Made by a program: the position numbers and the translations under genes
In this document: in pieces, positions 165 to 56,930 of the stretch
How the letters are laid out: each line of letters opens with the position of its first letter
Position numbering within the stretch: the stretch's first letter is position 1
The notes under the pieces: model-generated
Told to the model about the DNA's origin: nothing
Seen by the model: the letters and a program-made list of their open reading frames with translations, nothing else
The model's database searches: none
NCBI GenBank assembly: GCA_004431415.1
Contig: QPMI01000513.1
Span: 1 to 64,000, forward strand
DNA from: Cyanophora paradoxa CCMP329
Lineage: Eukaryota > Plantae > Glaucophyta
Reading direction: 5' to 3'
DNA length: 64,000 nt

Positions 165-797
165 CTAGCAAGGCCTGTCCTCCAAGTCTGCACCACCGCC
201 GCCTCCCAGCGCTAGCGCTAGCTCGATACCGCCTCCGGCCTTGATCTCCCTTGGCTCCAGCCACCTGAGAGGCTCAGGCCACCTCCTCCTGGTGAAGCCG
301 GTATCGTTGCTCTTGTCCAGCTTGAGGTAGCGGTAGGGCGCCGGCGCCGGCCAGTCCGGCCTGTGGCCGCTTGCCTCCTTGGCTATGTCCTTGGGCCTAC
401 GCGGACGCAGGTCGCCTTGGCCTTCGCCCTCTGCAGGGGGCCCAGCGCCTTGAACTTCGGTGCCTTGGTCGCCGGCAGGGCCTTGGGCTGGGGCTTCTGG
501 GGCTTCTGCGTCTTCACCGCCTTGGGCTTCGGCATCCTTGGCTGCTTCGATTTCGGCCATACTTCTTGCTCATAAATGAGAAAAGCGCCTCAAAGTCTGC
601 CTTTATCTCCTCCTTGGACCAGGATGTCATCTGATCCGGGTCACCTGAGAACGGCGCATCGAACGCCACGTGAGCGATTTGCAGGCCTGGGCAATCATTG
701 GCTCGGGCCATGCCAGCTCGATCAGCTGAAGGTAGATGTTGAGGGCCTTGTCGAGCTTGGCGCCCTGGGAGACCAGCTGGGAGATGGCGGGCTCCAT
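165..797 (-). CDS. Hypothetical viral protein, split by frameshifts
   Basis: ORF pieces 627-797 (MEPAISQL...), 514-630 and 165-560 are collinear. ATTTTCT motif about 19 nt upstream of the ATG at 797. Confidence 0.45.
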
Positions 798-881
798 GGT
801 GGGTAGACTAGCATCAGAAAATGGCGCCAAGTTCGAATCTATTTTTTTAACCGGGAGAGTTTGGGCCCGAGTCCCAGGTCC

Positions 882-930
882 AAGTTCCAGCCCATGACGG
901 AAAACCCATGACGGAATCTTTCGCGTCCGC
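882..930 (+). repeat. Direct repeat copy 2
   Basis: Matches 1-52. Confidence 0.8.
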
Positions 931-2009
931 GTCACTTCTCCCCCCCCCCTCAGGTGAGCGCTCACCTGAACCTCACCTGAACGGCCTCTATAAGCACGCG
1001 GCACGCGGCGTTCCCCTCCCACTCTCAATCTCTCTCAACGCAACCAGCAAGCAACAGGCCCTTGTTGCCCAGTTCTTCGTCGAGGAATACACCGTGCGCG
1101 TGATCGGCGAGCCCATTACCGCGAGGTGGAATTCTCAAAGGACGGCAAAGTAGACGACTGCAAAGACTGCCCCGGTAAGATCCTCCTCATGAAGCTCTCG
1201 ACGATGGCTTCTCCTTCACCCTGGTCTCCTGCGCCAAGACCCAACCGGACAGACGGCCTACATCGTGACCTTCTCCGCGGGCGCCTGAACTGCACGCATG
1301 TTCAAGTACCGAGTGCCTCGTTCTGCGCGGCGATCTCTCCCTCAGGCCGCTCCTCGCCTACACATTCTTTGAGGGTATCAGTGCAAACATCTGGGTCTTG
1401 CGGAGGCAGATGGGCTCCCCCCAGATGAAGTCGATCAGCTGCACCAGCAGTGCGGCTACCCTTTAGCCTTGACGATAGGATGATTTCCTTGATCTGATGC
1501 TCGTATCCCTCTGAAATTGAACGCGTGTTTCTGACTTCGTCTGAAGCTCACCTGACGCGGGGCCTTAAGAGGGGGCACGGGCCTCGGTTCCTCACACTTT
1601 AACCGTAAGCCAACGAGAGAATGTGCGCCCCCAAGTACTTCACCTGCTGCCTGACCTCGGCATCTTCGAGTACGAGGCCATGGAAGAGGATCTGGACGAG
1701 AACGGCGAGATCTGCTTCAACTACTGCAGGCTGCTGCGCAACATCTCGCTGGAGTGCCGCAAGGGCGACTGCTTCCAGCACATCATGCTCAATCCCGCCA
1801 AGACGAGATCACCCTGTACGCCGTCGCCTGCCCAGCGCCAGATTTAGACTCTCGATATTCGCGTAGCCGCGATCGAAGCCCTTCCCCCCCCAGTGAGACG
1901 AATTGAACACGTGTTTTACCTGAATCACCTGAGCGCTCAGCTGAAGTCAGGTGGGGCGCCCTTTAAATATTTTCTAGCGCTAGGCTATCGCACACTAAGC
2001 TCAGACAAC

Positions 2010-2791
2010 ATGGCCACCGTCCGCAACGCCAACGAGATCGACCCCGCCAAGCTCGCCTCGAGATCGACGCCACCGGCCGCATCAAGGCCAAGTACGACGG
2101 CCTGCAGGGCCTCATGATGTACGCGCCGCCCATGGTCACCATCAACCCCTGCATCAACACAGAGCAAGGCAAGGCGTGGAGCGACGAGAAGAAGGCCTTC
2201 GTCATGGAAGAAAACGGCGGATTCTACACGCTGGACCTCACCGATCTCAGCGCCGTCGACGGCCAGACGAACCCCGCCGCGGACGAGTTCCTCAAGCTGC
2301 TCGAGGCCCTGGACGCGAAATTCTGCGAGTTCGTGCAGCAGAACCAGGCCAAGCTCAAGGTCTCGCCCGGCCGCTCCCTCTCCAAGGACCAGATCTCGGT
2401 GCTGCAGACCCCCAGCGTGCGCATCAAGGTCGACAAGGAGTCGGGCCAGGCCTTCTACAAGTACCTCAACATGCGCATCCGCACCCAGACGATGGCGGGC
2501 AAGCGCAAGACCATCCCCGTCGTCGACATGTCCAACTACCTCATCACCGAGCGCGCCACCATCGGCACCGGCGACCTGGTGGCCGCCCTCGTCAAAATCG
2601 ACACCGCCTACGCCATCCCCGAGGGCAAGTTCGGCCTCAAGTGGTCCTTCCTCGCCGTGCAGCAGTGCAAGGTCGGCGCCTTTCGCTTCGCAGGCCGCAC
2701 GCCCGAGCTGGCCTTCAGGCCCTACGACAACGAGGCCAGCTTCGAGCCCTACCTAAACCCCGAGTCTATGTACACAGCCCCCATGCAGTAG
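2010..2791 (+). CDS. ssDNA-binding protein, T7 gp2.5-like/NCLDV OB-fold (N-terminus frameshifted)
   Basis: Starts MATVRNANEIDPAKL. Helix EFLKLLEALDAKFCEFV and C-terminal GDLVAALVKIDTAY...GKFGLKWSFLAVQ are typical of NCLDV SSB/DUF2738-like proteins. Confidence 0.65.
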
Positions 2792-2844
2792 CTCGGACGA
2801 ATAAATTGTGAATTTTTGGTGCAATTGATTACACGCGTTTACAC

Positions 2845-3648: not shown

Positions 3649-3677
3649 CCTTTACGCCTGCCCCTTAGAAATATTTT

Positions 3678-4007: not shown

Positions 4008-4029
4008 GTGCTCGCGTGGGCCTCAGAAA

Positions 4030-5152
4030 TTACTGACCGGGTCGGAGGGCCCGGGCTGCTAGGTCGTACATCTCCGCCTTCCGGGCGTTCGTTTCCGCGA
4101 GCATGGTAATCTGACTGTTCTCCGTGTTCCGGACGAGGGCCTGGAAGGCTGTCTGAATTGCAGTCTGCGATGCTTCGGACATACGGCCACCGTCCCTTTG
4201 CACGGAGCGCTTCCATGCGTCCTTTCTCGAACGGCGTGGCAAGCTGGTTGCTCTGCAGCGCAGGGAGCGGGTTGACGACGCGGGGCAGCAGGTTCTGGTC
4301 CGCGTAAGGCGTGGCCGTGGGCAGGGCCGGGCCGCGCGTCCCCGGCTGATCGAGGAGCATGGCCCCGAACGGATTGCCCCGGCTGAAGTCCACGTCGTTG
4401 CGCCCGTAGGGCTTGTTGACGGCGCTGCTGATGTTGGCCGTCTGCGCGTTGAACATGGGCGAGAGGTCGGGGGTGTAGCCCGCGCGCAGCCCCTGCGGGT
4501 TCGCAGCCGTCTGCCCGTAGCGACCGGCCGGCCCGAGCAGGTTCTCCTTCTCGATCTCTTCCATCGTCTTGATCCAGCCGCGCTCGCGCGCCCACTTCAT
4601 GACGAGATCGTCGTAGTTCATCGGGAAGAAAACCTTCTGGTATTTATCGAAGCGCTGAATTTCGATATCCTGCTCGATCATGTTCGTAATTCGCTCCAGC
4701 AGCTCGGGGTAATATTCCTCGAGCATTTTGGCGACGCCCGGCTGCTTCAGGTCGAAGGCCGTCATCGCCCACTGGTCGAAATCGCGAATCATGATTTCCT
4801 TCCGCAGGCTGAACGCGTTCTCCACATCCTCCTCGTTGATCGTGCGGCCGGGGTTCGCGTTCTGCAGCTGCTGTCGGATGCCCATGCGCATCAGCTTCTC
4901 CATCGAGGGCGTGTACTTCATCGCGGGCAGGGTCTTCGTTTCCCCCCCGCTGAGCCCCAGGCCCCGCGCCTTATCCTCGGGCGTGTAGATGTCCGCCTTC
5001 GTCCCATCTACGACGGGCACCTCGGGCATAATCGTGCCCGGAAGGAACTTGTTCACGATGCCGTCCATGTCGGCCTTCAGGTCGTTCTTCAGCGACTGGC
5101 GCTGCTTCTTAGAGCCCTCCCCAATGTCCATCATAGAGTGGCCCTTCGTCAT
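4030..5152 (-). CDS. Hypothetical virion-associated protein (probable frameshift near 4200)
   Basis: The long ORF joins the 4030-4242 frame, whose TAA overlaps the next gene's TAATTTCT motif. Lies directly downstream of the MCP. Confidence 0.55.
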
Positions 5153-5231
5153 CGCGCCTCGGTTAGGATCCCAGTGGGAAAATTTATTGGTTCACATCGG
5201 CCTACCAAGCACACCCTGGCTAACAAGCAAT

Positions 5232-6602
5232 CTAATGGAAGCGGCGGTAGGCGCCGCCGTTGGTGAAGGTGATCTCGTTGTAGTAGCGGCAGTAGATGTC
5301 GGCCACGGGCTTGTCCGTGCCGTAGGTCTTGAGCGTGGTGAGCGTGAGCTCGATGGTCTTGAAGGCGCCCATGTCGAGGCCGCCGAACATCTTGGTGTTG
5401 TCGGCCACGTCCGTGCCGAAGGGGAGCGAGTAGATGAACTCCGTCCCGAACTGGCCCACGTTGCGGGGCTGGATGTCGCTGCTGTGCCCGTCGTGGGTCG
5501 CAAGGGTCGTGGGGGCCGTGTCGTTGCCCGACCACGGGTGCGGGTGCAGCGCGTCGGCCACGTCGGCCGCTGCCGTCCCGTCCATCGAGGTCACGCCCCG
5601 CAGCAGCTCGAGGTGCTTGCGGGCGGGGGCGTGCGTGTGCTCCTTGTGCGCGATGGCCGTGCGCAAAAAGTGCGCGTCGTGGTTCGAGCTATCGAGCACC
5701 TTGATGTTGTCGCACTTCAGCTCGATCTTGTCGAGCGGGCGGAAGCGCCAGAAGTGCTCGCCGTTGTCGGTGTGCGGCTTGTCGCGCACCACGATGATCA
5801 GCTCGTAGCAGATTCCGGTGAAGGGCAGGCGGATGGCCTTGCCGGACTCGAACGAGACGTGGTAGTGCTGCACGTACTTGCCGGCCCACGTGAACGAGTT
5901 CGGGTGCAGCGCCAGCTCGCGCGAGTCGATGTGCACGTAGCGCAGGATGAGCTTGGTGTCCAGGCTGACGGTGCTCGTCAGGTTGGTGTTGGTGTGCAGG
6001 CCGCCGTCCACGTACGAGGCCGTGATCTCCTTCTGCGAGGCGTACGTGATCTGCAGCTTCATGTCGTTTCCGGAGCAGCGGAGCTTGTGGAGAGGCACGG
6101 CGAACTTTCGACCGTGGCCCGTCGCGATGCGAATCGGTATGTACAGCGTGTTCGAGGCCTTGCCCCGGCGGCGCAGCGGCTGGTGCGCCCAGAGGTTGTT
6201 CACCATGTCGACGTGCTGGACGACGGACTTGTCGTCCTCGAACTCGCCGTAGATGGCGTCGTAATGGCCGTCGTACTCGTGGATCAGCTGCGCGCCCACG
6301 AAGATCTTCACCTTCTTGAGCAGCACGTAGCCGGCCTTCGGGATGTAGAAGTGGTCCGCGTTCGTCAGCGCCGGCAGCGTCACCTTGAGCCAGGAGTCGT
6401 TGAACATCGGCGCCGAGTGCGGGATGACGATGTCGACGGTCTGGGCGAAGCTCACGCCCGACTGCACGGGGCTCACCTCGAGCACCTCGTCCACGAACGG
6501 CATCGCCGTGTCGAAGGTCTCGTGCACGTGCACCGACGCATCGGAGCTGCGCAGCGAGTGGTGCAGGGCGGTCGTGGGGGTGGAGATGAGCGCGGAAGCC
6601 AT
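5232..6602 (-). CDS. Major capsid protein, NCLDV-type double jelly-roll
   Basis: SFAQTVDIVIP...WLKVTLPAL...GYVLLKKVKIFVGAQLIHEYDG, LYIPI, and C-terminal GGLDM...IYCRYYNEITFTNGG match the NCLDV MCP pattern; 456 aa. Confidence 0.85.
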   Translation of the reverse strand: MASALISTPTTALHHSLRSSDASVHVHETFDTAMPFVDEVLEVSPVQSGVSFAQTVDIVIPHSAPMFNDSWLKVTLPALTNADHFYIPKAGYVLLKKVKIFVGAQLIHEYDGHYDAIYGEFEDDKSVVQHVDMVNNLWAHQPLRRRGKASNTLYIPIRIATGHGRKFAVPLHKLRCSGNDMKLQITYASQKEITASYVDGGLHTNTNLTSTVSLDTKLILRYVHIDSRELALHPNSFTWAGKYVQHYHVSFESGKAIRLPFTGICYELIIVVRDKPHTDNGEHFWRFRPLDKIELKCDNIKVLDSSNHDAHFLRTAIAHKEHTHAPARKHLELLRGVTSMDGTAAADVADALHPHPWSGNDTAPTTLATHDGHSSDIQPRNVGQFGTEFIYSLPFGTDVADNTKMFGGLDMGAFKTIELTLTTLKTYGTDKPVADIYCRYYNEITFTNGGAYRRFH

Positions 6603-6644
6603 GGTGGTTTAGGGGTGCGTTGAGAAAATTTTTTGGGTGGACGC

Positions 6645-7090: not shown

Positions 7091-8888
7091 AAGGAATCCC
7101 TCCGGCGAGCCCGATTGGCCGCGCGCTCCGCTTCCGTCTCCTCGTCCATGGGATCGTCTGGACTGGCTGGATTGCCTGGAGCACCGGAGCGAAGTTTCTT
7201 CAGCAGCCCCGCACGGCGAGCTTCTGTCGCCTCTTTCACCTTCTTGGCGGCCAGTTCAAGCGCATCGTTTACGTCCATGGTCGCATACCCGGGTCTCCGC
7301 CCCATATCCTTGTACGCGGCCCTGCGCTTGTCCATGGCTTCCTTCTCGCGCGGGGACGAGGGGGCGATTTCTATCCCCGCGTTTGCGAGTTGAGCCTGGA
7401 CGGCGACGGGCACCTGCTCGATCACGGCCCTTGCCGCTGCAACGGCCACCGCCTCGGCCGCCACCACCTCTGGCGGGCGCGAGGGCCCCGCCTGCGGCTC
7501 GGGTGGCGGCGGGGGCGGCGGTGGGGGTGGAAGCGGGGGCTGCTGCTCCGCTGGGGGCGCCGACGGCCGGGCCACCGTGTCCGGGGGCTGCGAGGGGCCG
7601 GGCTGCGGCTGCAGCGGTGGCGTCTTCGGCCCGGGGGGCGGAGGCGGCGGAGGCGGAGGCCCCGGAGGCGGGGCCCCCCCTTCGTCGTCGGAGTCTGACT
7701 CGATCATTTCGTCTCTGGGTTCCTTGGATGGCAGGGCCTTCTGAATGAGGGCCTCGCGCGCGCCCTTGCCCGCCTTGATTGCTCTGCCCATGGCCGCCTC
7801 CGGGAAACTGGCCTCGATGGCCTCGTTGTCCCCGTCCGTGATGCGCACCTTCTGCTCGCGGCGGGCCTTGATGTACTTTTCCTTGTCCATCCGCTTCTTC
7901 GCCCGCCGCCTCTCCCTGAGCACGTCGCGCTGGCGGCTCTCGTCCGGCCCCGGCCCCTCGCTGTCCGAGCTCGAGGGCGGCTCGGCCTGGGCGAAGGGCT
8001 GGCGCGTGTTGCGGTTCGCGTAGTCGGGGTCGTACCTCCCTCCGATCAGCTCCTCGGGCTTCTTGTTCTCGCGCGCGTAGATGCTCGTGGGCTTGAACTC
8101 CTCGCCGTTGATGATGTACTTGTAGTAGTAGTACGCGTCCTCGAGGTTCATCGGCCCCAGCGTCTCGAGGCGCTTCTTGCGCTTCAGGAATTCGGTGATC
8201 TGATCCTCCTTCGACTTGCAGAACTCCCGCACGCCCGGCAGCACCGTCAGGTTCTTGCCGTCCACGTCACAGGCGCCCGCCCCCTTGGCCTTCAGGTTCG
8301 CGGTGAAGGCCGACTGGCCCATCAGCCAGGCGCGGAAGCCCTCCTCGTACTCCTCGTCGAGGCTCGACTCCATCTGCTGGAACTTGTTGATGTAGTAGGC
8401 GTTGGCGATGGCCTGCGCCTCCACCTCGGCGAGCTTGTCCGATTGATCGCGCTCCTCGAACCGAATTTCCGGCGTGGCCCTCGCCAGCGCCGTCTTCATC
8501 AGCTGCTGAAAGTGTGCGTACTTGTCGCTCTCGAAGGGCGTGATGTGCGAGTCCCCGCCCCCCGGGATCGCGAGCACGTTGCGCGGCGCGAAACGCGAGG
8601 CGAGCCCCCTCATTTGCACTTCTTAGGAGCCGGCTTTGAAATTTTATCGGTCTTGGCCTTGTCTTCCTTCCCGTCCTTCTTCTCGGCCCCCTTCTTCCCC
8701 TGCTTCGTCGGGCGCATCGCCACGAATATTTCGCCGGGCGAGACGTCCTCGTACAGCGGCTTCGGTCCCTTAGGAAATTCGGGCGGGCCCTTCAGCTTCT
8801 CCTTCGCCTCCTTCACCTCCGCCTTGGTGGGCCGCTCCTGCCCGTTCGTGGGCGCCTTTTTCGCGGGCTTCTTCTGCGCCTCCGGCAT
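7087..8888 (-). CDS. Lys-rich N-terminus / Pro-rich hypothetical protein (ORFs 8610-8888 and 7087-8619 probably one gene)
   Basis: A single shift near 8620 joins KPAPKK to QMRGLASRF. TTTTTCT motif upstream of 8888. Poly-Pro tracts. Confidence 0.6.
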
Positions 8889-8890: not shown

Positions 8891-9229
8891 TTACCCATCA
8901 CCAGAAAAATATGGGTTGGCGCCCCCGTACGTCTCGGGGAACTGCCTCTCCCACCTGCGCATGGCCGCGTCCCTCTGGTCGTCGAAGCTACGGTAGGCCG
9001 CGGCCCTCTGCCCCATCACGATTTGCCAGAGCCGTGCACGGACCTCGTCCTGCAGTCTGTACACCCAATCGCGAATGTTCTCGACGATATCCGTCGGCAG
9101 CGTGGCCAACCCCGCCTTGATCTCGGGTACATCCGTGGGATCCTCTTCGAGCGTAAGCTTCTGCATGCGAGCGCGCAGCATCTCAATTTGCGTATCGATT
9201 GGGGCCCAATAAGGGATAGATCGAGACAT
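8891..9229 (-). CDS. Hypothetical protein
   Basis: 112-aa ORF with TTATTTCT upstream. Confidence 0.55.
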   Translation of the reverse strand: MSRSIPYWAPIDTQIEMLRARMQKLTLEEDPTDVPEIKAGLATLPTDIVENIRDWVYRLQDEVRARLWQIVMGQRAAAYRSFDDQRDAAMRRWERQFPETYGGANPYFSGDG

Positions 9230-9241: not shown

Positions 9242-9505
9242 TCACTGAGAAATAACACTGGGTCGGAAGAGGAGGTACCCCACCAGGATCCCCGCTATAA
9301 TCCAGAGGGGCGACCAGTCGCGCTCCGCCGGCGCGCCCCCCGGCGTCACCATCAGCTGCCCCGCCCCGGGCCTGCGCAGGCCGTGCGTGCGGTGGTCCGC
9401 CCAGTGCGGGCGCGGGAACTGCTCCTGCGGCATGCGCTCGGGGTAGACGCCGTCGAATCGGTTCTGCATTTGGTACATGTCCCTATCGAACAGCAGGGAG
9501 GCCAT
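9242..9505 (-). CDS. Small membrane protein
   Basis: C-terminal hydrophobic segment PLWIIAGILVGYLLF. Confidence 0.6.
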   Translation of the reverse strand: MASLLFDRDMYQMQNRFDGVYPERMPQEQFPRPHWADHRTHGLRRPGAGQLMVTPGGAPAERDWSPLWIIAGILVGYLLFRPSVISQ

Positions 9506-9727
9506 TTCTCAATTTGGGGAGGGACTTAGAAATACTGCCCGTGAGCTCCCTGTCGCGGATCCTGCGAAAATCCGCGAAGAGCCCGCGCGCGCAGCGCCTG
9601 CAGACGAGGCGGGCCCGCCCGCCCACGCGCGCCACCGAGATCTCGTGGCCGAACTGCAGGTGGCCCGGGAAGCAGGTGGGGGGGTAGTCGCAGACGAAGC
9701 AGTGAACTGGGCAGTTGCGCCGCCGGA

Positions 9728-10132: not shown

Positions 10133-10318
10133 CTACGGGTGTAGACAGCCTTCAGAAAAAAGTGCGTAGTAGCGGACGGCGCACCGGGCGCAGCAGACGT
10201 ACACGCCCGCCTTGAGCACCCAGCCGCGCTTGGTCTGGGGCAGGCGGCAGATTTCGCAGCAGAGGGGCCTCGGCTTACGGCATGACGATCCCATCTGCGG
10301 GCCCTCCAGAAATCGCAA
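10133..10318 (-). CDS. Small zinc-finger protein
   Basis: CEIC...CARC pairs. Confidence 0.4.
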   Translation of the reverse strand: MRFLEGPQMGSSCRKPRPLCCEICRLPQTKRGWVLKAGVYVCCARCAVRYYALFSEGCLHP

Positions 10319-10801: not shown

Positions 10802-10838
10802 CCCAGGGTCGCAAGAAAATCTGAATGAAGGGGGTAAT

Positions 10839-11906: not shown

Positions 11907-11932
11907 TTTTTTCTGAGGCTTCGTGCGTAAGC

Positions 11933-12283: not shown

Positions 12284-12318
12284 GCGCGCCCCTTAAAAAT
12301 TTCCGAGGCCCCAGGAAA

Positions 12319-12663
12319 ATGTCAAAGGTGCTCCTAGGGCTCTCCCAGGCTATCGTGCAGTACGCCCTCGGCCTGGCATCCGGCTCCCTCATCGACGCCG
12401 CCTTCTCCTCGCACGAAGGCGAAAACAGGACGGGCCACGCGGCCGAGCTCGCCGCGCAGGTCGCCGTCAACGGCCTCTCCCTCGGCCTGCTCTCGAAATA
12501 CGTGCTCACCCTCAAGTTTTTCGACGACGACCCCACGGGCGGAATTATGTTCATCCTCGGATTTACACACGGGCAGACGAACATGCTAATCAAGGCTACC
12601 AGCGCTAGCTTCGGAATCAAGCAGGCGCTCGAGCGGAAGGCCGCCGCGATCACTAAAGAGTAG
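12319..12663 (+). CDS. Putative membrane protein
   Basis: Several hydrophobic Gly-rich helices. Confidence 0.55.
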   Translation: MSKVLLGLSQAIVQYALGLASGSLIDAAFSSHEGENRTGHAAELAAQVAVNGLSLGLLSKYVLTLKFFDDDPTGGIMFILGFTHGQTNMLIKATSASFGIKQALERKAAAITKE

Positions 12664-13483
12664 GAAAGAAATGCCAGTCGTTGTACTCGCAGATCCTGTT
12701 CCAAATCGAATCTAACTCCGAGAGTTTCTGCCTGCTCTTGAGCAAGGGGAAAAAGGGGAGGTGCTGGGGCAAATCTAGCAGCACGAAAATCTGCCTGAAT
12801 ACGTAATTGTAGTTGAGCATGTTCTTCCTGCCCTGCGACTTGAACATGCTGAAGGGGACCTCCACCAGGGCGAACATCTCCTGCACCCGGTCCATATCCT
12901 CCGCGCTCATCGGAGGCGGGCGCTCGCCCGTGATGCGCCACTTGATCTGCGCCCAGCGCTCGATGTACTTCTGCTGCTTCAGAGCCCGGAGAACTTGGCG
13001 GATATTGTCTTTGCTCCACTCCTTCCCCGCCATGCGCCTCGCAATAGCTGCCAGCACGTCCTCGGGTACTGGAGAATCCTCCAGGCAGTGCTGCTTAAGT
13101 CGCTCGGAAACGTGGTACTTGCGCAGGTAGTTGCTGTGGAGCTCGCTGACAGCCAGGGGTTGATGGTCCGGATAATAAAAATCCAGGACCAGACCGCAGC
13201 TTTGGCAAACCAGATCCCCATCCAGGTGAACACCAACGAGGGCGGTAGAGCCGCAATTTCCGCAGGGGACAGCGGCTTCGCCTTGGGGGCCTTGCGTGCG
13301 GCGGTTGCGCTTGCGGGGGCGCTCTCCGGCCTTGAGGTAGGAGTTGGCGATGGCGGCGGCGGCGGCGGGGAACGGTGCCGGAGTGTCGAAGTCTGGGTCC
13401 CCCTCGTCGTGAAGGATGGCTCCGTAGCGCTGGATCTGCTCAAAGTTTCGGAGGAGGAGATCGATTTCGCCAGAGTCTGCCAT
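12653..13483 (-). CDS. Late transcription factor VLTF3 (poxvirus A2L-like)
   Basis: Zn ribbon CGNC...VCQSCG, YLRKYHVSE, RKNMLNYNYVFRQI, FPLLKSRQKL...DSIWNRIC...WHFFPTL. Confidence 0.93.
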   Translation of the reverse strand: MADSGEIDLLLRNFEQIQRYGAILHDEGDPDFDTPAPFPAAAAAIANSYLKAGERPRKRNRRTQGPQGEAAVPCGNCGSTALVGVHLDGDLVCQSCGLVLDFYYPDHQPLAVSELHSNYLRKYHVSERLKQHCLEDSPVPEDVLAAIARRMAGKEWSKDNIRQVLRALKQQKYIERWAQIKWRITGERPPPMSAEDMDRVQEMFALVEVPFSMFKSQGRKNMLNYNYVFRQIFVLLDLPQHLPFFPLLKSRQKLSELDSIWNRICEYNDWHFFPTL

Positions 13484-13714
13484 TCCTCCGAGTCCTCGTA
13501 CCGCAGCTGAGCGATTCCCTTGCAGAAGTGGCAAACGGGCTTCGCGCAATCGAGTGGGTCCCAGCCGCAGGTGAGCCCGCAGATGTGACAGAAGGCGTTG
13601 CTCAGGTGATTCATGTGAGGCTCAGGTGGTGCTCAGGTGAGGTGCGGACGTACCCCGGGGCCCCACGTGGAAGCTCACCCCAGCCTCGGAAAATTTTCTA
13701 GGCCTTGGTCTGAC

Positions 13715-14557: not shown

Positions 14558-14580
14558 ATTTTTTCTCGTGTCCAATAAAT

Positions 14581-16610: not shown

Positions 16611-16631
16611 TTGTTCTGACGCGCCCGCAAG

Positions 16632-17024: not shown

Positions 17025-17283
17025 GACTTACGCGCGAAAGAAGCAGCAGCAGCCGAAGGAGCCGGCCGAAATGGCGGCTGACCTGGATCGGTGCACCCGC
17101 CGCGCCATCGCGAGCTACGCCAAGCGGGTCGAGCAGTACCACCCCCAGATGGCAGAGGACGCCAGGGCGTACGCGAAAAACCCCGCCGCGAGCCCGCCCG
17201 TGATGGCCGCCGTCATCGACCGGCTGCAGTGGGCGCTGCACGAGGAGGGGGAGCGGGTGAGGAATTTCTTCATGCCCAAGTAA
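16912..17283 (+). CDS. Hypothetical protein
   Basis: TTTTTTCT motif upstream; stop overlaps the next motif. Confidence 0.55.
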   Translation: METPATTAPSAEAPSSCPGSSSNSTSTSTSTAFPWLLRTYARKKQQQPKEPAEMAADLDRCTRRAIASYAKRVEQYHPQMAEDARAYAKNPAASPPVMAAVIDRLQWALHEEGERVRNFFMPK

Positions 17284-17305
17284 ATTTCTGAATGGGCCCT
17301 TAACA

Positions 17306-17494: not shown

Positions 17495-17517
17495 TTTCTC
17501 AGGCCCCTTCCTAAATA

Positions 17518-17967: not shown

Positions 17968-17987
17968 ATTTTCGCAGGCCCCCTTAA

Positions 17988-18464: not shown

Positions 18465-18490
18465 TTAATTTTTCTCTCTCGCGAATAGAA

Positions 18491-23715: not shown

Positions 23716-23739
23716 TCGATTTTCTGATGCAATCCAAAA

Positions 23740-40618: not shown

Positions 40619-40676
40619 TCTTTCACTATAAAAACAATAGAAAAATAAGACTGACTGTGGTAATCGCACGAATTCC

Positions 40677-41990: not shown

Positions 41991-42037
41991 GAGCGTTTCT
42001 TCTCTTATCTTTGGGATCAGAAAATAATTTAAAGGGC

Positions 42038-42964: not shown

Positions 42965-42980
42965 CTTACTATAATAGATT

Positions 42981-43826
42981 ATGAAAAGAATAACAATAAA
43001 TTGCGACAGTAGAGACCTTGAAAACGGCGTGCTGCATTTGAAAACGCGCCTTAATAATGTTCGACGATTTCGTGTGCTATCCGCTGAGATTCCAAATAGC
43101 TCTTATGTTGTTCCGCCCGATCAGACAATAACTATAACGCTTCTAAACGAAGAGCCCACAGTAATCCCCGCATCCAAAATGATAGCACCGATTCCCAGCG
43201 TAAACGATTATTATTACGTCGATGCTGATAACGAACGATACCCAAAAGAGAGAGCTCTAAACAGTGATGCTTTACTTGGATTTGCGGGCGGTTCTTTTGA
43301 TCCGCTCGGTCTCTTCCCGGTTTCCTATTCTCTCGCTCTGTCTACGAACCGCTTCGTGTTCTCATCTCCGAATAGCCCTTTTACATTAGAGTCCTCAGAC
43401 CAGGAGTTCTGTGACTGTCTCGGCATAGAACCCGGAGTGGTTTACGCCAGCACACCAGAACCAGTGCCGGTTCCACTCAGAGATTACCCCAGTCGCTACG
43501 CGATTATATGCCCGAAAATGGTCGACTTTAATGCAATTCCATATATTTACCTTGATATCGAAGAGCTCCGCCCGTTTACCAAATTCGCAGCGGTTACTGG
43601 GAGACAGAACAATTTCGACGACTCCTATCTATTGCGAATTCAGATGAACTCGGACTTTGGTAGATATTCCTTTTACCACGAACCGAGCGCAAGCATCCCT
43701 TTCGTAAATGTCACATCGCAACTCGATTTAGATCGTCTCACAATTTCGCTTCGAAAATGGCGGGGATCTGTTGCAGATATAAACGGTCTCTCATACTCGT
43801 TCCAGCTCGAAGTGATCACCGATTAA
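42981..43826 (+). CDS. Minor capsid (penton) protein 2
   Basis: INCDSRD...NVRRFRVLSAEIPNS, YIYLDIEEL, LTISLR...DING..YSFQLEV. Confidence 0.8.
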   Translation: MKRITINCDSRDLENGVLHLKTRLNNVRRFRVLSAEIPNSSYVVPPDQTITITLLNEEPTVIPASKMIAPIPSVNDYYYVDADNERYPKERALNSDALLGFAGGSFDPLGLFPVSYSLALSTNRFVFSSPNSPFTLESSDQEFCDCLGIEPGVVYASTPEPVPVPLRDYPSRYAIICPKMVDFNAIPYIYLDIEELRPFTKFAAVTGRQNNFDDSYLLRIQMNSDFGRYSFYHEPSASIPFVNVTSQLDLDRLTISLRKWRGSVADINGLSYSFQLEVITD

Positions 43827-45326: not shown

Positions 45327-45369
45327 TATCTTATATACTTCTTATATATCTTCTTTGTTTATAAAGAGG

Positions 45370-49130: not shown

Positions 49131-52100
49131 ATGACTGAACCCATAGTAGAAACGACAATAAAGAATGCGGTATTGGATAATAATTTTATATAACCCATGC
49201 CAATATACCCAGTGAATCCAATGACCTGATAGTAGATCTAAAAGGGTATGTGATGGGAGCTATGGCTTCCAACCTGTGGAATGACATTTTTGGTTACGAG
49301 TTTGGTCACATATATGACATAGCAAATGGGATTGGCTATGTGGATGCAATGGCGGGAACAGTCTTTCGAAATCTAAATTGCAACTGTGTGGGTGGGTGGA
49401 TGTTTCAGATCTGTTCAAACGTCGATCCTACTATTGATCCAGCTACTGTGACCTTTGATTGCAATCTATTCGCCCCTAAAACCATTTTCTCCATCACTTG
49501 CAATCTCGTTAATTCGGATGTGCCCATAATAGCACCTGTAATAGGTGCATCAAATATGTATATCCAAAGAAACCCGGTCGTGCATACAGGTGCCGAATTT
49601 ATATTGGGCGACAACACCCCAATTAGTCGAATCGAACTACCCAATTCTCACAAGCATTTGTGGGAACATATCACCAATGCCCCATTAACCTATCCACCCA
49701 GTTCTCACGAGCATTTGTGGGAGCATATCACCAATCGACCATTAACCTTCCCACCTGATCCACACACTCATGATTACTTGTCTCTCAAAGGTGGTGTTAT
49801 TTCATCTAATCTTACAATTGCATCAAACCTTACAGTTACAAGTAATATTTATAGCAGTAACATTTATGCAAGTAACATTTACAGCAGTAACCTATGGGCA
49901 AGTAATATTAATGGAAGTAATGTAATAGTCGATTATCTCACTGTGAAGATTGAAGCAAACCTACCAAATCACCCGACATCGAATGTTGTTTTAGATTGGT
50001 TAGCAAAGCAAAAACACACAAAAGCAGATATTACAGATTTCGCCCATAAGCATTTATGGGAAGATATCACAAATCCCCCATCGACCTTCCCACCGGGAAA
50101 ACACACTCATGATTATTCAGAGATTACCAATAGTAACCACAGGCACCCATGGGAGGAAATAGATGAGCAGCCAGTTTTTGCGCAATTGAATGCAATCGGA
50201 AATGTTTTTAATGGGGTCACACTTTACCAATCGATTAATACACCTGAAAGGCTATTTTTGAATGATCATTATGTTAGTCTGAATGGGTCGTTTACAGGTG
50301 AAACAGGCACACCGATGGTGGGAACTCTTGCTGTAAGATTACCCAGGGATCCAATCGTAAACGGAGTGTATAGTGGCGATTTCAATGTAGGAGTAAATGA
50401 TACTTTCCCCAGTATCTATGTTACGAATTATCACCCAGGAGAAATAGGACAAGAAGCGGATTTTTCAGCAGCAATTCAAGTAAATGTAACGGATCAAAGC
50501 GCATATGATGGAGCAAGACCTAAGATTGTGTTCACAAGGGAGAAAGTTGTAAACTATCTTCCTGTTGTGGGACAACCCACAGATGATCACGGAAAATGCG
50601 AGATTGCATGGATTAAAACAACAACAGGTGGCGCCTTAGAAGTCAATCAGAGAATGGCGGCGAAAAACTTACACAATACAACCCTTTCAGGTGTGGTAAC
50701 AGATGATTACCTCCAAAGCAAAAACTATGTAGATGATACAGAACTTGCAGCAATTCTTGAAGATTATGTTACAGATACCGAATTAACGTCGGCTCTTGGG
50801 AATTATCTACCTCTTACAGGTGGGACTCTTACAGGTGATGTGCACGCCCCGAATTTCTTTGTCGACACTCCACATGATCAAACATTTCCTGTTGTCCACC
50901 TTGGTGCTGAATATGTATTAGATCCAAACACTCCAATAAGTCGACTCGAATTACCCAATGTTCACAAGCATTTTTGGGAGCATATTGTTAATCCCCCATC
51001 GACCTATCCACCTGATTCACACGATCATGATTATTTACCACTAACAGGTGGAACTGTGGCAGGTGATGTGCATGCTTCTAATTTCTTTGTTACTACTCCG
51101 AATGATCAAACATTTCCTGTTGTCCACCTTGGTGCTGAATATGTATTAGATCCAAACACCCCAATCAGCCGCCTCGAATTACCCACGAATTTCACCTTTA
51201 ATCTCGTGGATGAGTTCCCTAACAGTCAAAGTCTCATGTATTTCACCTCTGAAAATCGCCTTTCGGGTGCATTCTCACCAATTGAGCTGTCTATACCAAA
51301 GCAAAAGGTGAGCTACAAGGAGCTTACAGATGTGCCGACGGGATTCAGTGGGAAGTGGAGTGATATCATTCAGAAGCCGACTTGGAGTAGTGTAGCATAC
51401 ACAGGAAATTACTATGATCTTGTAAATCCTCCCGATTTCACAAGCTATATACCTCGTTGGATTGATCAAGGTGTAATTATATCAGAATCTACACTTCCTT
51501 TCAATGGGACATGGGATAGGTTATTTACTAAGCCGAATTTGCATGCTGTTGCCACAAGTGGAAATTATGATGATCTGATAAACACTCCAAACCTACATGC
51601 TGTGGCTACAAGTGGAAATTATGATGATCTGATAAACACACCAAACCTACATGCTGTGGCTACAAGTGGAAATTATGATGATCTGATAAACACACCAAAC
51701 CTACATGCTGTGGCTACAAGTGGAAATTATGATGATCTGATAAACACACCTACTTCGCCACCTACTCACAATCACAGCATCGAGTTGCTCACGAATTTCG
51801 GTAGCTATGTAAATGCAAATGCATATGTGCAACAGGGGACAGCGGATGTAGTTATACCTAATCAAGTTTATACAGTAGGGCAAGTGTTTACAGCATCAGG
51901 AACCGTTACGTTTTCTACCCCATATTATAGTGATCCAATAGTTAATGCTACTCTCGAAAACAGTATTATTTTAACGAGTGTCGATTTCACCAATAGCATA
52001 TATATCTCCGCTGAATTTGTGAGTGGGAACCGTGTTGGTTTCAAAAATAAATTCACCTGGATTGCTATATTTACTTGTTATTCGGCGATCAATTATACGA

Positions 52101-52180
52101 ATGTGCCACAAAACGAAAGAACGCTTAAACTCCATTGGATTGCTGTCGGACCTCTCCAAAACAATAATATTCTCACGTAA
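49131..52180 (+). CDS. Large fibre protein with His-rich repeats (frameshift near 49185)
   Basis: ATG at 49131 joins the 49250 ORF through a T-run. Contains HKHLWEHITN.P.T.PP repeats, YLPLTGGT, VATSGNYDDL repeats and C-terminal LHWIAVG. Confidence 0.78.
51533..51750 (+). repeat. Four tandem 54-bp units (PNLHAVATSGNYDDLINT)
   Basis: Units start at 51533, 51587, 51641 and 51695. Confidence 0.92.
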
Positions 52181-52200
52181 TAATAAAGAACAATCAAAAG

Positions 52201-53163
52201 ATGTCGACTGTGTTCACGCCTGTGTTTTCCTTATCAGCCAGTGCTGTCCATAACGTGCAACACACTGTATATGATCTAAACGAGTCATTCCCTTCGACTG
52301 AGACAGCGAAAACCGATTCTTTTAATGAAAACACGATACTCAGAGTCAAAGAACTCAGAGCCGACAAGGCCGGTGGAATCGTTAAAGCTACTGAACTGAT
52401 CGTATCGAATCGACCCGCAATATCTTCGGGGCTGGTCACCAAAGATAATCTATATGAAGGTCAAGCGGATTATAAAACAGCTTTCGATCCGGCTGATAGG
52501 AAATCAGCGGCTTTTCAAGTTTACAGTGGCGGGGCATGGATCGGGACTGGACTGAGTGTGAATGGGAATGCGACGATTACTGGAAGCCTTACGGCTGGAT
52601 CATTTGGGACAGTTAAAACGACCACTATTGATTCTGGGGCGAACTCTGATTTGTTGATTAAACGAAATGGAGTTGCAATGGCGACAGTAACTTCAACAGG
52701 TTTGACAGTCAATAGTGGAACAAATATGGGTTATCTTTCTCTTCCAAATCATCCAAGTTTCATGGTTTATGGAGTTGCCTATTCAACAGGTAGCACAGCA
52801 ACTACCTCATATGTCAACTATCCTACTGTGGCTTTTAATATTGGAAACAATTTCAGTGTAGCTTCTGGTGCAACCCCCGCAAGGTTTACAGCTCCTGTAA
52901 GCGGAATCTATCTATTTAAGTTTTCAGTTTATCCATCAACACCTGCTGGAACGTGGGCTATGTTCTTTCGTGTAAATGGAAGCACAAACTATTACAATCA
53001 GTCCATTCAGAATCAAGGCACCCTTGCTCATATGGAAGCGGTGCTTATGATAAAACTGAATGCAACAGATTACGTATCACCATTCCTAGGACATACAACA
53101 GGTGTTACGCAATTGACATATGATTTTAACTGTTTCCAAGGTGTTCTTCTTCATGCTACCTAA
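52201..53163 (+). CDS. Fibre protein with C-terminal C1q/TNF-like head
   Basis: PSFMVY...FNIGNNFS...RFTAPVSGIYLF...LNATDYV...FQGVLL. N-terminus homologous to 23740-24942. Confidence 0.82.
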   Translation: MSTVFTPVFSLSASAVHNVQHTVYDLNESFPSTETAKTDSFNENTILRVKELRADKAGGIVKATELIVSNRPAISSGLVTKDNLYEGQADYKTAFDPADRKSAAFQVYSGGAWIGTGLSVNGNATITGSLTAGSFGTVKTTTIDSGANSDLLIKRNGVAMATVTSTGLTVNSGTNMGYLSLPNHPSFMVYGVAYSTGSTATTSYVNYPTVAFNIGNNFSVASGATPARFTAPVSGIYLFKFSVYPSTPAGTWAMFFRVNGSTNYYNQSIQNQGTLAHMEAVLMIKLNATDYVSPFLGHTTGVTQLTYDFNCFQGVLLHAT

Positions 53164-53197
53164 AAATTTAATCTCCTGTTCATTTAAAAGCCAAACA

Positions 53198-53556: not shown

Positions 53557-54425
53557 GCATGTATCTTGCATAGTGGGCGGGGCGCGAGTTTATTTTAACG
53601 TGGTCTATCGTCGTACTTTGTCGGTGGGGCTTACCTTGATCTCGCAAGTTTGTGCAGGTGGGCATTTTCGGCATGCTTGCTCATGCACAAACTTGCTTTA
53701 AAAAATATAAAATGAAATTCGGTTTAACTCTTACGTGTTTTGCTATAACACTCTCGGCATTGGTAGTTGAGACCATCCTTCGTTCTTTGTCTTTTATTAA
53801 ACTCACTTGCAAGCTTCTCAATCTTGCAGTGCGAGCATATCTTCGATTGTACTTCGATCTTCGGACGCGTTTTTAACACACAATGATAAAGGTAATTGTG
53901 ATACTCTCGGTCGCAGTCTTTGCATCTCCAATTCAAAAGTACATTCCCTGAGCTACGCTTTTGCAATGCATAACTCGATGCCGGTTTTACCTTATCGCAA
54001 ACATTGCACCGCTTACTCTCAGGTAAATTTACTTGATTGCTTGCCATTGTTACAGTATATTAACTGCTTTAAGTGGGGATCACTTGTTTAATTGGTGGGG
54101 CTCACCTTGATTTTTCAATTTGGGTAACTGAAAACAGTCCGGAAACGATCGGGAACATTTCGTAAAAATGAGGGTCTTACTGTCCTTACTGAGAGATCGG
54201 GGGAAAGTTAAAGGGCTTACTGGGAATGGTAAGGAATTAGAAAAATGAAGAATGAAAGGGTTTCGTGATTGGTTTCAGTAAGGAAGGGTTAGATGTTTGA
54301 AAAATACAATGTGGCTCAGTGCGAATTTGTGATTTTGTGACTGAGATTCGTGATGCTGAAAATGTGCTTATTGAAAATGGTCGCGGGAAGGTCGCGCAAT
54401 TGGTGGGGGCTACCCCCAAGCGAGC
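53557..54425 (-). repeat. Right terminal inverted repeat (869 bp)
   Basis: Reverse complement of 29472-30338. Confidence 0.97.
53724..54047 (-). CDS. TIR-encoded zinc-binding protein (copy 2)
   Basis: Identical to 29848-30171. Confidence 0.7.
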   Translation of the reverse strand: MASNQVNLPESKRCNVCDKVKPASSYALQKRSSGNVLLNWRCKDCDREYHNYLYHCVLKTRPKIEVQSKICSHCKIEKLASEFNKRQRTKDGLNYQCRECYSKTRKS

Positions 54426-54475
54426 CCAAGCCCCAAGCCCCAAGCACCAAGCCCCAAGGTCCGAGCACCAAGGTC
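54426..54475 (+). repeat. Remainder of IR arm R: (MCCAAGC)n...CCAAGGTCCGAGCACCAAGGTC
   Basis: Reverse complement of 29024-29070. Confidence 0.85.
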
Positions 54476-54533
54476 AAGTAAAAATAGTCGGCCAATTTTT
54501 ACAAGTATGTACAATGGAATGACGCAATACTAT

Positions 54534-55585
54534 TTACAGCATCTCAAAGTCAGAGTCATCGTCATCGGAAACCAAGTCAATCGGGGCCTCGGGCGCCGAC
54601 TTAAGGGGAATGCGGGGAAGGGCCTGCGCTGCCTGCACTAAGTCCTGCCGCTCCTGCTCGCGCTGCGCCGCCAAGGCCGCTGCCGCCTCTGCCTCGCGCC
54701 GCTGCTGAGCCTCGACGCGCGCCTTGAGCTCGGCTGCCTCCTTCTTCTTGCGCTCGGCAATCTTGGCCAGCGTCATCTCGCGACGAAGAAGGCGCTCGTG
54801 ACGCAACTTGCGTCGGAGTTCGGCCATTTCGCGCTTGGCGATGATGCGCTTCTCAATGGTCTTGACGTGCTGAGTCAGGCGCTTGGTGTAGTGTGACGTC
54901 ACGCGAGAACGGGCAATGCCAGCGCCGATCTTCAAGTCTTTTTCGTGTTCCTTGGCGGGATTCTTGACTCGCTCGGAGTTGTCGGTGAATGACGTGGTCT
55001 CCATGAACTTCTTCTTGACGATTGACTTGGTCTTGATAATGCGGCGCTTGCGAGTCGGGTTTTCGTTGTCGCCTTCAGAGTCGGAAGAGGACTCAGAGTC
55101 GTATTGAATCGGCACGTCAAAGTCGATAAAGTCGTTGATGTCAGACTCGGCGTCAGAGGCCTCGGACTCGGCGTCATCGACTGGCTCGGGAGCGGGCTCG
55201 GCGACGGGCTGAGGGGCAGATGACGACGATGACGGAGGGGGAAATTCGTGAAGACTTGAGGGGATAGGCCCAGGCGAGCGTCTCGGCGGCAGACTCGGCG
55301 AAAAGCTTGGGTCGCCCCAGCCAGTGGGAGTCTTGACCCAGCCGGGGACGGGGGCACGTCGACGGGCTCGGGCTTGGGCTCGGGCTTGGGTTGCTTGGAC
55401 TTGGGCAGAAGGGAGGATACAAAGTTGAGGTTGATGGTATGGAAGCCTTCTCCGCTGTGAGCTTGGTAGAGGTACCCCAGCTTGCGGGCACGCTTCTCCA
55501 TTTCACGGGTAGGCCAATCGCGGGACTTAGCCCACATCTCACGGGCCTTGGCAAGGTCCTCGACAAGCTCAGAGGGAATCGACAT
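54534..55585 (-). CDS. Hypothetical protein of the outer virus (low-complexity middle, coiled-coil C-terminus; frameshifted)
   Basis: MSIPSELVEDL... and ...PIQYDSESSS...IDLVSDDDDSDFEML pieces are collinear and GC-rich like the outer virus. Confidence 0.5.
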
Positions 55586-55982
55586 CTGCGCAAAGGGAAG
55601 AGAGATCAGCAAAGGCAAAACGTGAGGTGACTGTGAGAGCGGACTTGTGAAAATTCGGAGAGGCAGGGTTTCCTTGGGCTGAGAGAGGCGGCGAACCCGT
55701 TGTAAGAGTGAGCCAAAATGGCGGCGGACCACGGTTTTGTTGCCGATTTTTTTCGCGGTCTAGTTCGCAACGGAAAACGTTGCCAACTGGCCTGAAAAAA
55801 GCCAAATTTGGCCTTTTCTTACGTTTCTCCCCCCTTCCTTCGCTGCAAACTGGACCTAAAAAAATGTTGGGCCGAAGGAAATCTCACGGAAAAAGTCCCT
55901 TCTCCCCCCTGTTTTGCTGCAAACTGGACCGCAAAAAAGTTGGACCGAAGCCCCCCTACCCCGCTGAGCGGCCTGACGGAAA

Positions 55983-56534
55983 TCACTCGAGTGCGTCCGC
56001 CGAAGGTCGAGTCTCGGGGTTGGGTGTACCCCCGTCCAGAAACTCATCTGAGGTCCACAGATTTTTCCCCAGCCGTGTCAGGTATGCCAAAACGGCCGCC
56101 TTATCCGGAAGATAATTCTCAGTCAGCAGCCGTTGAAAGGCGTTACGAAATCGCATGACAACCTCCTCTGGATTCATATCCTTTATGAACGCCATGAACT
56201 GCGAATTTTTTGCAAGCTCCTCCGCTGCAACGGTGTCCGTATTGGGGAATGCTATTGGATACGGGAAATATCCTCGTGGAACCTCAGCAAGGTTGCTGCC
56301 TTGTGTCGACTTCACTAGGAGAGGTGCGGCGTAGCCAGTCATGGATTGCTTCACGCCGAGCCCGTTGTGGCTGAAATCGTACCGTTGGCGGGCCAGGCTT
56401 CCTGTGAGCTCTTGCTCCATGCGCCCAATAAATGAGCGATCGTATGCTGCGCGCTTTCGATCGTATGAGGCTTCGACATTATCGCGTGTTGTGTCGACTA
56501 TCCTCTTCCGACGGTCCACTGTCCAACTGGTCAT
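55983..56534 (-). CDS. Hypothetical protein of the outer virus
   Basis: ATG MTSWTVDR at 56534 with AAAATTTTCG upstream. Confidence 0.6.
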   Translation of the reverse strand: MTSWTVDRRKRIVDTTRDNVEASYDRKRAAYDRSFIGRMEQELTGSLARQRYDFSHNGLGVKQSMTGYAAPLLVKSTQGSNLAEVPRGYFPYPIAFPNTDTVAAEELAKNSQFMAFIKDMNPEEVVMRFRNAFQRLLTENYLPDKAAVLAYLTRLGKNLWTSDEFLDGGTPNPETRPSADALE

Positions 56535-56571
56535 TTGAGCTTTCCCCTCCCTCCGAAAATTTCCCCGCTTT

Positions 56572-56650
56572 TGGGTCCAGACTCTGATTCCAACTCTTCC
56601 CAAGCCCCAAGCACCAAGCACCAAGCATCAAGCACCAAGGTCCTAGGTCC
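56572..56650 (+). repeat. Third copy of the IR arm (TGGGTCCAGACTCTGA...(CCAAGCA)n CCAAGGTCC)
   Basis: Same orientation as arm R. Confidence 0.8.
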
Positions 56651-56792
56651 CATTTTTCTCCCATTTTGACTCGAGATTCAGACCAAGTCCAAATCCGGAC
56701 CACGGATTCGAACCCTCGTTTTCGATCGATTTCACGCGTGAAAAACGCACTTTTCGGCCTTTTCGCATTTATTTTCTCTACCCCGGCCCAAA

Positions 56793-56930
56793 ATGGACCC
56801 CCTCCCCGAAATCGCGATCGAAAATGGTCGCGATCGTCTCGTTTTCGCGATCGTCGTGATCGGAATCGTCATCGCGATCGTCGCGATCATGGTGATCACC
56901 AGCCTCGTCTACGGTACCCCCCAGCTGTGA
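56793..56930 (+). CDS. 45-aa single-TM microprotein
   Basis: MDPLPEIAIENGRDRLVFAIVVIGIVIAIVAIMVITSLVYGTPQL; TTATTTTCT motif about 15 nt upstream. Below the ORF-track cutoff. Confidence 0.55.
   Translation: MDPLPEIAIENGRDRLVFAIVVIGIVIAIVAIMVITSLVYGTPQL

Follow-up and report, generated by a model that had tools for sequence, protein, structure and literature searches.

Virophages and some polinton-like viruses (PLVs) have promoter motifs in common with their helpers (PMC11464507 among other sources), and a promoter motif held in common by a small virus and a nucleocytovirus is in itself nothing new. The late motif of mimivirus, which is also that of zamilon, is given as W8-T[AC]T-N4-W5-RTAKA (PMC11464507), and the late promoters of CroV and ChlorV, like those of mavirus and type 4 endogenous mavirus-like elements (EMALEs), are described as an AT-flanked TCTA (PMC8547959, PMC5294985, PMC13196603). 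Mriyaviruses, the proposed deepest branch of the nucleocytoviruses, encode VLTF3 but no RNA polymerase, and a nuclear location has been proposed for them (PMC11253617). No mriyavirus promoter turned up in the literature that we searched, subscription papers being mostly outside its reach; a word search of the available text of the Mriyaviricetes paper (PMC11253617) returned no occurrence of 'promoter', and the intergenic regions of yaravirus are reported to show no enriched motif. Here we describe a two-part upstream element in a 64,000-nucleotide stretch of the glaucophyte Cyanophora paradoxa CCMP329 (contig QPMI01000513.1, positions 1 to 64,000; hereafter the window), in which a PLV is inserted into a mriyavirus-like element, the outer virus, and genes of both are preceded by it.

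The GC-rich outer element covers the window from about 1 to about 57050 and is interrupted by the AT-richer inner element. From its sequence the outer element is an endogenous gamadvirus-like mriyavirus. The inner element, judged likewise, is a PLV, because it has terminal inverted repeats (TIRs), a target-site duplication and an rve integrase.

1 to 29471: left part of the outer element; GC about 0.6; Pfam matches for major capsid protein (MCP), RuvC, VLTF3, DUF5767 and DUF5679; gene neighbourhood in common with metagenome loci L001-L018
29466 to 29471, plus: left copy of the target-site duplication, 6 bp
29472 to 54425: inserted PLV, 24.95 kb; GC about 0.45; TIRs 29472-30338 and 53557-54425; A32, rve, methyltransferase and patatin
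54426 to 54431, plus: right copy of the target-site duplication, 6 bp
54426 to 57050: right part of the outer element, where CCAAGCA repeats resume past the insertion; box 1 before 56534 and 56793; right border approximate

Box 1 upstream of genes in both viruses

A first-pass annotation of this DNA had listed 24 starts in the two viruses as preceded by the word WWTTTTCT, some 13-30 nt before the ATG. All 24 positions are indeed ATGs on the expected strand, but the literal word fits only 12 of them. The real word is WWTTTCT (box 1): 22 of the 24 listed starts have it in the preceding 50 nt, the other two, 16632 and 27817, having only degenerate forms, and its distance from the start codon is 12-34 nt. 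Box 1 also precedes starts 2010, 9505, 10123 and 38861, absent from that list, which likewise lacks the second box described below. At 5 of 30 outer starts box 1 overlaps a stop-like triplet. The sites in the outer virus are as follows (the start served is given after 'before').

816 to 822, minus: box 1 before 797
1969 to 1975, plus: box 1 before 2010 (ssb-like gene)
3667 to 3673, minus: box 1 before 3648 (DUF5767)
4025 to 4031, minus: box 1 before 4007
5177 to 5183, minus: variant (TCC) before 5152
6610 to 6629, minus: box 1 (6623-6629) with TA at +12, before the MCP gene (6602)
8637 to 8643, minus: variant (TCA) before 8613
8903 to 8909, minus: box 1 before 8888
9248 to 9254, minus: box 1 before 9229
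9528 to 9534, minus: box 1 before 9505
10154 to 10160, minus: box 1 before 10123 (DUF5679)
10814 to 10820, minus: box 1 before 10801 (RuvC)
10816 to 10822, plus: variant before 10839 (A32 ATPase), back to back over the RuvC box
11908 to 11914, plus: box 1 before 11933
12298 to 12304, plus: variant (TCC) before 12319
13693 to 13699, plus: box 1 before 13715 (putative HUH)
14560 to 14566, plus: box 1 before 14581 (putative long HUH)
16611 to 16617, plus: variant before 16632
17283 to 17289, plus: box 1 before 17306
17493 to 17499, plus: box 1 before 17518
17968 to 17974, plus: variant (TCG) before 17988
18469 to 18475, plus: box 1 before 18491
23719 to 23725, plus: box 1 before 23740
27088 to 27100, both strands: variants, back to back, before 27073 (minus) and 27113 (plus)
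27790 to 27796, plus: weak variant before 27817
28999 to 29005, minus: box 1 before 28984 (HNH)
56554 to 56560, minus: variant (TCG) before 56534
56771 to 56777, plus: box 1 before 56793 (45-aa hydrophobic ORF)

For counting we used a curated set of starts, from which 560, 2114, 16242, 16912, 19636, 32718 and 32939 were dropped as frameshift artefacts and in which 33205 and 49253 were swapped for upstream ATGs. Within 50 nt upstream, WWTTTCT precedes 19 of the 30 outer starts, versus 0.94±0.94 in dinucleotide shuffles, and 7 of the 18 PLV starts, versus 1.3±1.0 (p≤0.0003 in each case). The first-pass annotation had set, as one result that would refute it, a motif not enriched over the AT background of the PLV; the enrichment persists over shuffles of the very same windows. 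With a conservative PLV set (the longer ATPase start, and three TCCGGT copies taken as one) the count is 4 of 16 versus 1.2 (p=0.019). A relaxed form of box 1 precedes 29 of the 30 outer starts (shuffle 5.8±2.0) and 12 of the 18 PLV starts (6.5±1.7).

The box depends on strand and position. On the antisense strand the word occurs in 1 of 31 outer and 1 of 17 PLV upstream regions, and among the remaining ATGs it lies 10-35 nt upstream in 7 of 611 in the outer virus, 5 of 801 in the PLV and 1 of 219 in the right flank. ORF sets drawn up blind to the motif gave 12 of 33 (outer), 6 of 21 (PLV) and 0 of 17 (flank), and a further blind set gave 13 of 26 versus 0.6. TCTA, judged on the first listed site per start, is found at 4 of 19 starts in the outer virus and at 1 of 9 in the PLV.

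These counts bear on the reading of the box as a splice or trans-splice acceptor, or as a mere AT island at gene ends. Short intergenic gaps and an AG within 8 nt after 11 of the 19 outer sites speak for it. However, 7 of the 19 outer sites, that of the MCP gene included, have no AG before the ATG, no AG stands within 8 nt at any of 7 PLV sites, and shuffles that keep composition give only about one match, which together make this reading very improbable.

The second box and published late promoters

Box 1 is the first half of a two-part element: an AT run ending in TCT, a spacer of about 10 nt, then TA (box 2). When the PLV sites are anchored on TCT, TA stands at exactly +11/+12 in 10 of 12 sites (shuffle 3.3), though the ATG lies anywhere from 13 to 34 nt off, and it does so in 8 of the 10 sites whose ATG is at least 16 nt away (shuffle 1.3). 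In the outer virus TA falls at +10 to +14 in 17 of 29 sites (shuffle 6.9) and in 12 of the 16 with a distant ATG (3.3). The modal spacer is alike, 10-11 nt in the outer virus and 10 in the PLV. Written out as W4TCT-N10-TA, the element precedes 9 of the 18 PLV starts versus 0.5, or 6 of 16 versus 0.5 in the conservative set; in a phage control richer in AT it precedes none of 17. This phage had supplied the lone match of the extended PLV pattern among viral contigs, which runs antisense within a helicase gene; we rejected it as a chance match and kept the phage as the AT-rich control.

30369 to 30387, plus: box 1 with TA at +11, before the methyltransferase gene (30389)
31967 to 31991, minus: two-part site before 31962; 1 mismatch to the published mimivirus late motif
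37730 to 37754, minus: two-part site before the polymerase gene (37716); 2 mismatches to it
38299 to 38323, minus: two-part site before 38299; 2 mismatches to it
38896 to 38902, minus: box 1 before 38861, TA at +12
40625 to 40649, minus: two-part site before ATPase start 40618; 2 mismatches to it
42019 to 42025, minus: box 1 before the MCP gene (41990), TA at +12; poor AT block
42953 to 42993, both strands: variants, back to back, TA at +11 each, before 42981 (plus) and 42964 (minus)
45345 to 45351, plus: variant before 45370, TA at +11
52163 to 52187, plus: two-part site before 52201; 1 mismatch to the published motif
53168 to 53174, plus: variant before 53198, TA at +11

The PLV sites resemble the late promoter of the Megamimivirinae, zamilon and Sputnik (PMC11464507): both have an AT run, TCT, a short GC-richer spacer, an AT block and, at +11/+12, TA, less than 40 nt from the ATG. 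The published W8-T[AC]T-N4-W5-RTAKA is matched upstream of 5 of the 18 PLV starts with up to 2 mismatches (shuffle 0.44) and of 10 with up to 3 (2.3); at up to 2 mismatches the whole window holds 8 matches, 6 of which precede PLV starts. In contrast, none of the 30 outer upstream regions matches at up to 3 mismatches. The AT fraction at +5 to +9 is 0.93 in the PLV versus 0.32 in the outer virus. The two viruses thus differ in dialect: the PLV has an AT-rich form with fixed spacing, the outer virus a GC-filled form in which the spacing is loose.

Late-type sites of the PLV precede polymerase and packaging genes alike. The present case differs from the Megamimivirinae and their virophages (PMC11464507) in that the carrier is a PLV, with an rve integrase and no protease found, rather than a virophage, and in that the last position of its motif is usually A, not G or T; the outer virus, unlike the Megamimivirinae, has only box 1 and a loosely spaced TA. 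With CroV and mavirus the locus shares a TCT core after an AT run and an endogenous small virus with a late-type motif, but G, C and A can each follow TCT here, with a conserved A one step further on in the mriyavirus. TCTA with AT on both sides, as in CroV and mavirus, is not the rule: TCTA is in the minority, and the DNA downstream of the outer sites is rich in GC. The two-part form may already appear in the motif logos of Halocafeteria elements and of other EMALE types. As in Gezel-14T and PgVV (10.1101/2022.07.28.501842), a PLV has a promoter motif in common with a nucleocytovirus; Gezel-14T, however, is described with an early AAAATTGA motif and a known helper, whereas the motif here is of late type and a helper can only be proposed. 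The poxvirus late promoter (T-rich core, 5-7 nt, TAAAT; PMC5294985) is alike in its T-rich block, spacer and TAA(A) near the start codon, though the spacer and leader are longer here and the block ends in TCT, so that the resemblance is one of layout only.

The extension TATTTTCTCCGGT that the first-pass annotation placed before 31962, 37716 and 38299 is present at all three, and the copies are probably duplicated, because two of them are 91% alike across 32 nt. The duplicated cassette, with a CCGG spacer (31964-31995, 37727-37758 and 38296-38327), stands before the polymerase gene and two small genes.

Distant relatives, VLTF3 and the reading of the boxes

A VLTF3 scan of metagenome contigs yielded 19 loci, 18 of which were taken as gamadvirus-like, mostly by their common gene neighbourhood, many of them closely related to one another; L019 (23% GC, 1.4 kb) did not enter the motif counts, being too short and unlike a gamadvirus. 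VLTF3 identity at the gamadvirus-like loci is only 36-42%. A matrix trained on the outer virus alone (consensus aWTTTTCTgA) gave z=6.2 for the 49 dereplicated upstream regions of these 18 loci and z=2.8 for those of the PLV. Of the 49 regions, 10 contain WWWTTCT versus 1.4, with 5 on the antisense strand. Because box 1 precedes genes of such distant contigs, it is likely to be a lineage-wide and apparently undescribed candidate late promoter of mriyaviruses. It is absent before two genes of relatives (L001 2879-3883, L004 450-1439) that, from gene order and a VLTF2-like motif, are likely to encode VLTF2; Pfam gave no match for them.

A candidate reader of the outer boxes is encoded by the outer virus itself.

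12653 to 13483, minus: outer VLTF3; Pox_VLTF3 E 2e-24, TFIIB zinc ribbon E 3e-7
13602 to 13640, minus: TCACCTGA copies upstream of VLTF3; further copies at 641, 950-980, 1548, 1925-1953 and 29136-29143

The TFIIB-type zinc ribbon of VLTF3 scores above the Pfam cut-off. Its cyclin-type helical domain is a weak match (Z 5.7-6.7, under 8; rmsd 3-4 over about 90 residues), with cyclins, Orc6 and TFIIB scoring level, and Foldseek returned nothing for VLTF3 at E≤0.001 (best E 0.17). VLTF3 itself is the sole one of the 30 curated outer starts without even relaxed box 1. It is preceded instead by the E-box-like TCACCTGA, of which the outer virus holds 9 copies versus 1.1 expected, and the PLV and L001-L019 none. 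Three TCACCTGA clusters have a TATA-like word about 10-25 nt further on; the repeats stand before VLTF3 and before outer genes in the 1000-2800 block. TCACCTGA is a candidate early promoter, one that host factors would read, and its place before VLTF3, versus box 1 before the other genes, would fit an early/late split in the outer virus.

We favour, with a probability of roughly 0.5, the reading that boxes 1 and 2 are dialects of a nucleocytovirus late promoter, of which the outer virus reads its own through VLTF3 and the PLV is tuned to a giant-virus helper. The mriyavirus would then have inherited a late-promoter core, and its VLTF3 would bind box 1 and recruit host RNA polymerase II. By analogy with the poxvirus TAAAT, transcription would start at or near the TA, and the element would be a promoter that acts late. 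The stricter, AT-rich form of the PLV would be tuned, virophage-style, to a giant virus, which is our first choice of helper because no transcription factor gene was recognised in the PLV and its form is nearer the giant-virus consensus. The sharing would reflect deep conservation among VLTF3-encoding viruses and their parasites rather than a link special to this nested pair. The viral late-promoter part of the first-pass proposal is supported: the box is specific in strand and position, distant gamadvirus-like loci have kept it, and its shape is like that of the CroV and mimivirus late promoters. Its further claim, that both viruses use the same factor and are functionally linked, goes beyond the data: the core is widespread, the dialects differ and the PLV family also occurs in other flanks. 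Of the two factors it had offered, that of a giant-virus helper suits the PLV better, with the outer VLTF3 still a candidate.

Several observations weigh against the favoured reading. The curated starts were not chosen blind to the motif, and the relaxed box and the +10 to +14 window of the outer virus were set post hoc. The misfit of the outer sites to the AT-rich consensus may reflect their GC content only. Once mismatches are allowed, spacers of 7 and of 4 fit the PLV equally well, so that the spacing is fixed only by the TCT-anchored count, and the site of the PLV MCP gene is itself 5 mismatches from the published motif. Expectation maximisation on 17 PLV regions missed box 1, and the PLV-trained matrix scores the outer virus at z=0.2; the matrix trained on the relatives is also weak in reverse (outer z=2.4, PLV z=0.3). 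In L001 (4 of 11 versus 3.9) and L004 (3 of 7 versus 2.4) box 2 shows no enrichment, and L012 has it in 3 of 4 sites only. VLTF3 of the relatives does carry box 1, unlike the outer VLTF3, so that the early/late split is not general. No VLTF2 homolog was found in the window. Host promoters were represented by 7 kb of right flank only, a small sample. We know of no giant virus of this host, a point on which no direct search was made.

Pyrimidine-rich TCT initiators exist in animals, and both viruses might have copied a host core-promoter or initiator element that the host polymerase II machinery reads with no viral factor. They share one nucleus, and neither encodes an RNA polymerase in the window. 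Nevertheless, box 1 is retained in loci whose VLTF3 identity is 36-42% and whose hosts are probably different, the PLV form matches the consensus of cytoplasmic giant viruses, and box 1 is all but missing from the flank in the blind ORF and ATG counts above (a small sample); we regard a host origin as unlikely. Slightly less likely still is a single giant-virus helper that serves both viruses and makes the mriyavirus itself virophage-like. The two-part layout and the lack of an RNA polymerase in both would agree with it, but the mriyavirus retains its own VLTF3, its sites match the giant-virus consensus poorly, and yaravirus is described as lytic with a factory in the region of the nucleus.

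The main competitor of the favoured reading, tentative as it is, makes the PLV a satellite of the mriyavirus: VLTF3 from an endogenous mriyavirus copy would direct host polymerase II to the PLV boxes, with no need for a giant virus. Box 1 and the modal spacing are alike, the outer-trained matrix recognises PLV sites, the host holds numerous VLTF3 paralogs (12 members in one cluster), and the PLV lies within the mriyavirus. Moreover, both viruses have a homologous tandem pair of fibre-like genes (outer 19636-24942, PLV 49253-53163; 34% over 145 aa, E 2e-12, and E 1e-10 for the other), which points to gene exchange between mriyavirus and PLV, or to a common donor. On the other side stand the difference in AT fraction between the dialects, the lack of TCACCTGA in the PLV, and PLV ends that adjoin other flanks in sequencing runs X1, X5 and X11, because of which nesting in a mriyavirus is not obligatory; nor can the partner be named from a core that CroV, mimiviruses and gamadvirus-like loci all have. 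It is conceivable, at no better odds, that the PLV parasitises a polymerase-less mriyavirus of 35-45 kb, that both lie dormant in one glaucophyte genome and swap fibre genes, and that the TFIIB-like VLTF3 of the mriyavirus steers host polymerase II to a late promoter of giant-virus type on both genomes. If so, the PLV would relate to a dwarf, nuclear helper in the manner of a virophage, and the nucleocytovirus late promoter would predate the viral RNA polymerase.

A conserved late-type box in a mriyavirus would offer a small, culturable system for VLTF3 recognition and host polymerase II recruitment, and the two-box form of the PLV a search image for its helper. A TCT-type motif held in common cannot by itself pair a small virus with its helper, since several lineages have that core.

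Gene content and other features of the two elements

The genes of the outer element include those for an ssb-like protein, two proteins with HUH motifs, RuvC, A32, VLTF3 and an MCP of nucleocytovirus type. The same set (MCP, A32, VLTF3, RuvC, a short and a long HUH protein and an ssb-like gene) is given for the 'Gamadviridae' (PMC11253617), where VLTF2, an SF3 helicase, a PD-(D/E)XK nuclease, a size of 35-45 kb and the lack of polymerases are named as other mriyavirus traits. VLTF2, helicase and PD-(D/E)XK genes were not found in the roughly 32 kb of visible outer element, and no DNA or RNA polymerase was found among the outer ORFs scanned by Pfam; the left end lies outside the view, and the element may continue past the window edge.

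5232 to 6602, minus: outer MCP; Capsid_N E 3e-8
33400 to 37716, minus: likely family-B polymerase fused to an SF1 helicase, in the PLV; translation motifs, weak SF1 matches
40677 to 41990, minus: likely PLV MCP; look-alikes in the Atlas at 0.98, with Capsid_N on 12-18% of members; no Pfam match

The outer A32 ATPase is 43-56% identical to its relatives across most pieces, the gene being frameshifted in the assembly. Two adjacent outer ORFs with an HxH motif are matched by a single family of relatives (E 2e-14 and 3e-7); that they are HUH proteins is our assumption from this motif, as Pfam gave no match. The Cys-rich frame 12979-13614 begins 131 nt upstream of VLTF3, overlapping it out of frame, and is also present in the paralog gene model P0024. 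Near-identical MCP and VLTF3 proteins labelled Cyanophora paradoxa in EukProt are present in many copies, and mriyavirus-like regions have already been mentioned in a glaucophyte assembly (10.1101/2025.04.19.649669).

The PLV, whose TIRs are about 870 bp long, carries genes for an A32 ATPase, a methyltransferase and a patatin, along with a frameshifted rve integrase gene and those for the likely MCP and the likely pPolB-SF1 fusion. The translation of 33400-37716 shows polymerase-like motifs. The likely MCP has no profile match to the outer MCP and no match in the PDB; only 6 homologs were found and its model has a pLDDT of 32. Searches of the viral contig set with the outer MCP, the PLV MCP (single and aligned), the VLTF3 alignment and the PLV ATPase returned no relatives. 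No protease family was found among the PLV ORFs scanned, and so no cysteine maturation protease, a trait of virophages and group 1 Mavericks. The proteome of this host also includes a divergent second family of PLV MCPs, represented by P0026 (EukProt).

Both outer and PLV families appear multi-copy in run X15, and contigs of X1 and X15 suggest other outer copies without the PLV insert. Contigs of three runs, which are RNA only by guess, cover outer genes, including those for the MCP (X1, X5) and VLTF3 (X1, X5, X11), which is a hint only. Cover by the runs (27, 22 and 27 of 30 bins for the outer virus; 3, 14 and 2 of 30 for the PLV interior) was not used as evidence, because the runs were picked via the outer stretch; the PLV interior cover in X5 consists of short contigs with a depth of 2-6. 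Contig ends proved unusable as start sites: an X1 contig of the MCP gene stops near the TA box, yet other contigs cross their motifs.

The PLV sits within one arm of an inverted structure that CCAAGCA repeats form in the outer virus (29015-29110, 29422-29471, 54426-54475 and 56572-56650), which is possibly an origin or a terminus. At the left edge of the window a start cassette is repeated 879 nt apart (1-160 and 880-930). Both PLV TIRs hold an identical 107-aa Cys-rich ORF (29848-30171 and 53724-54047) and repeated AGCCCCACC words, and an S-adenosylmethionine decarboxylase gene (31230-31622) adjoins that of the adenine methyltransferase (30389-31198). In the flank, 59200-59560 on the minus strand reads by eye as a fragment of a kinase-like host gene with short, intron-like AT-rich gaps.

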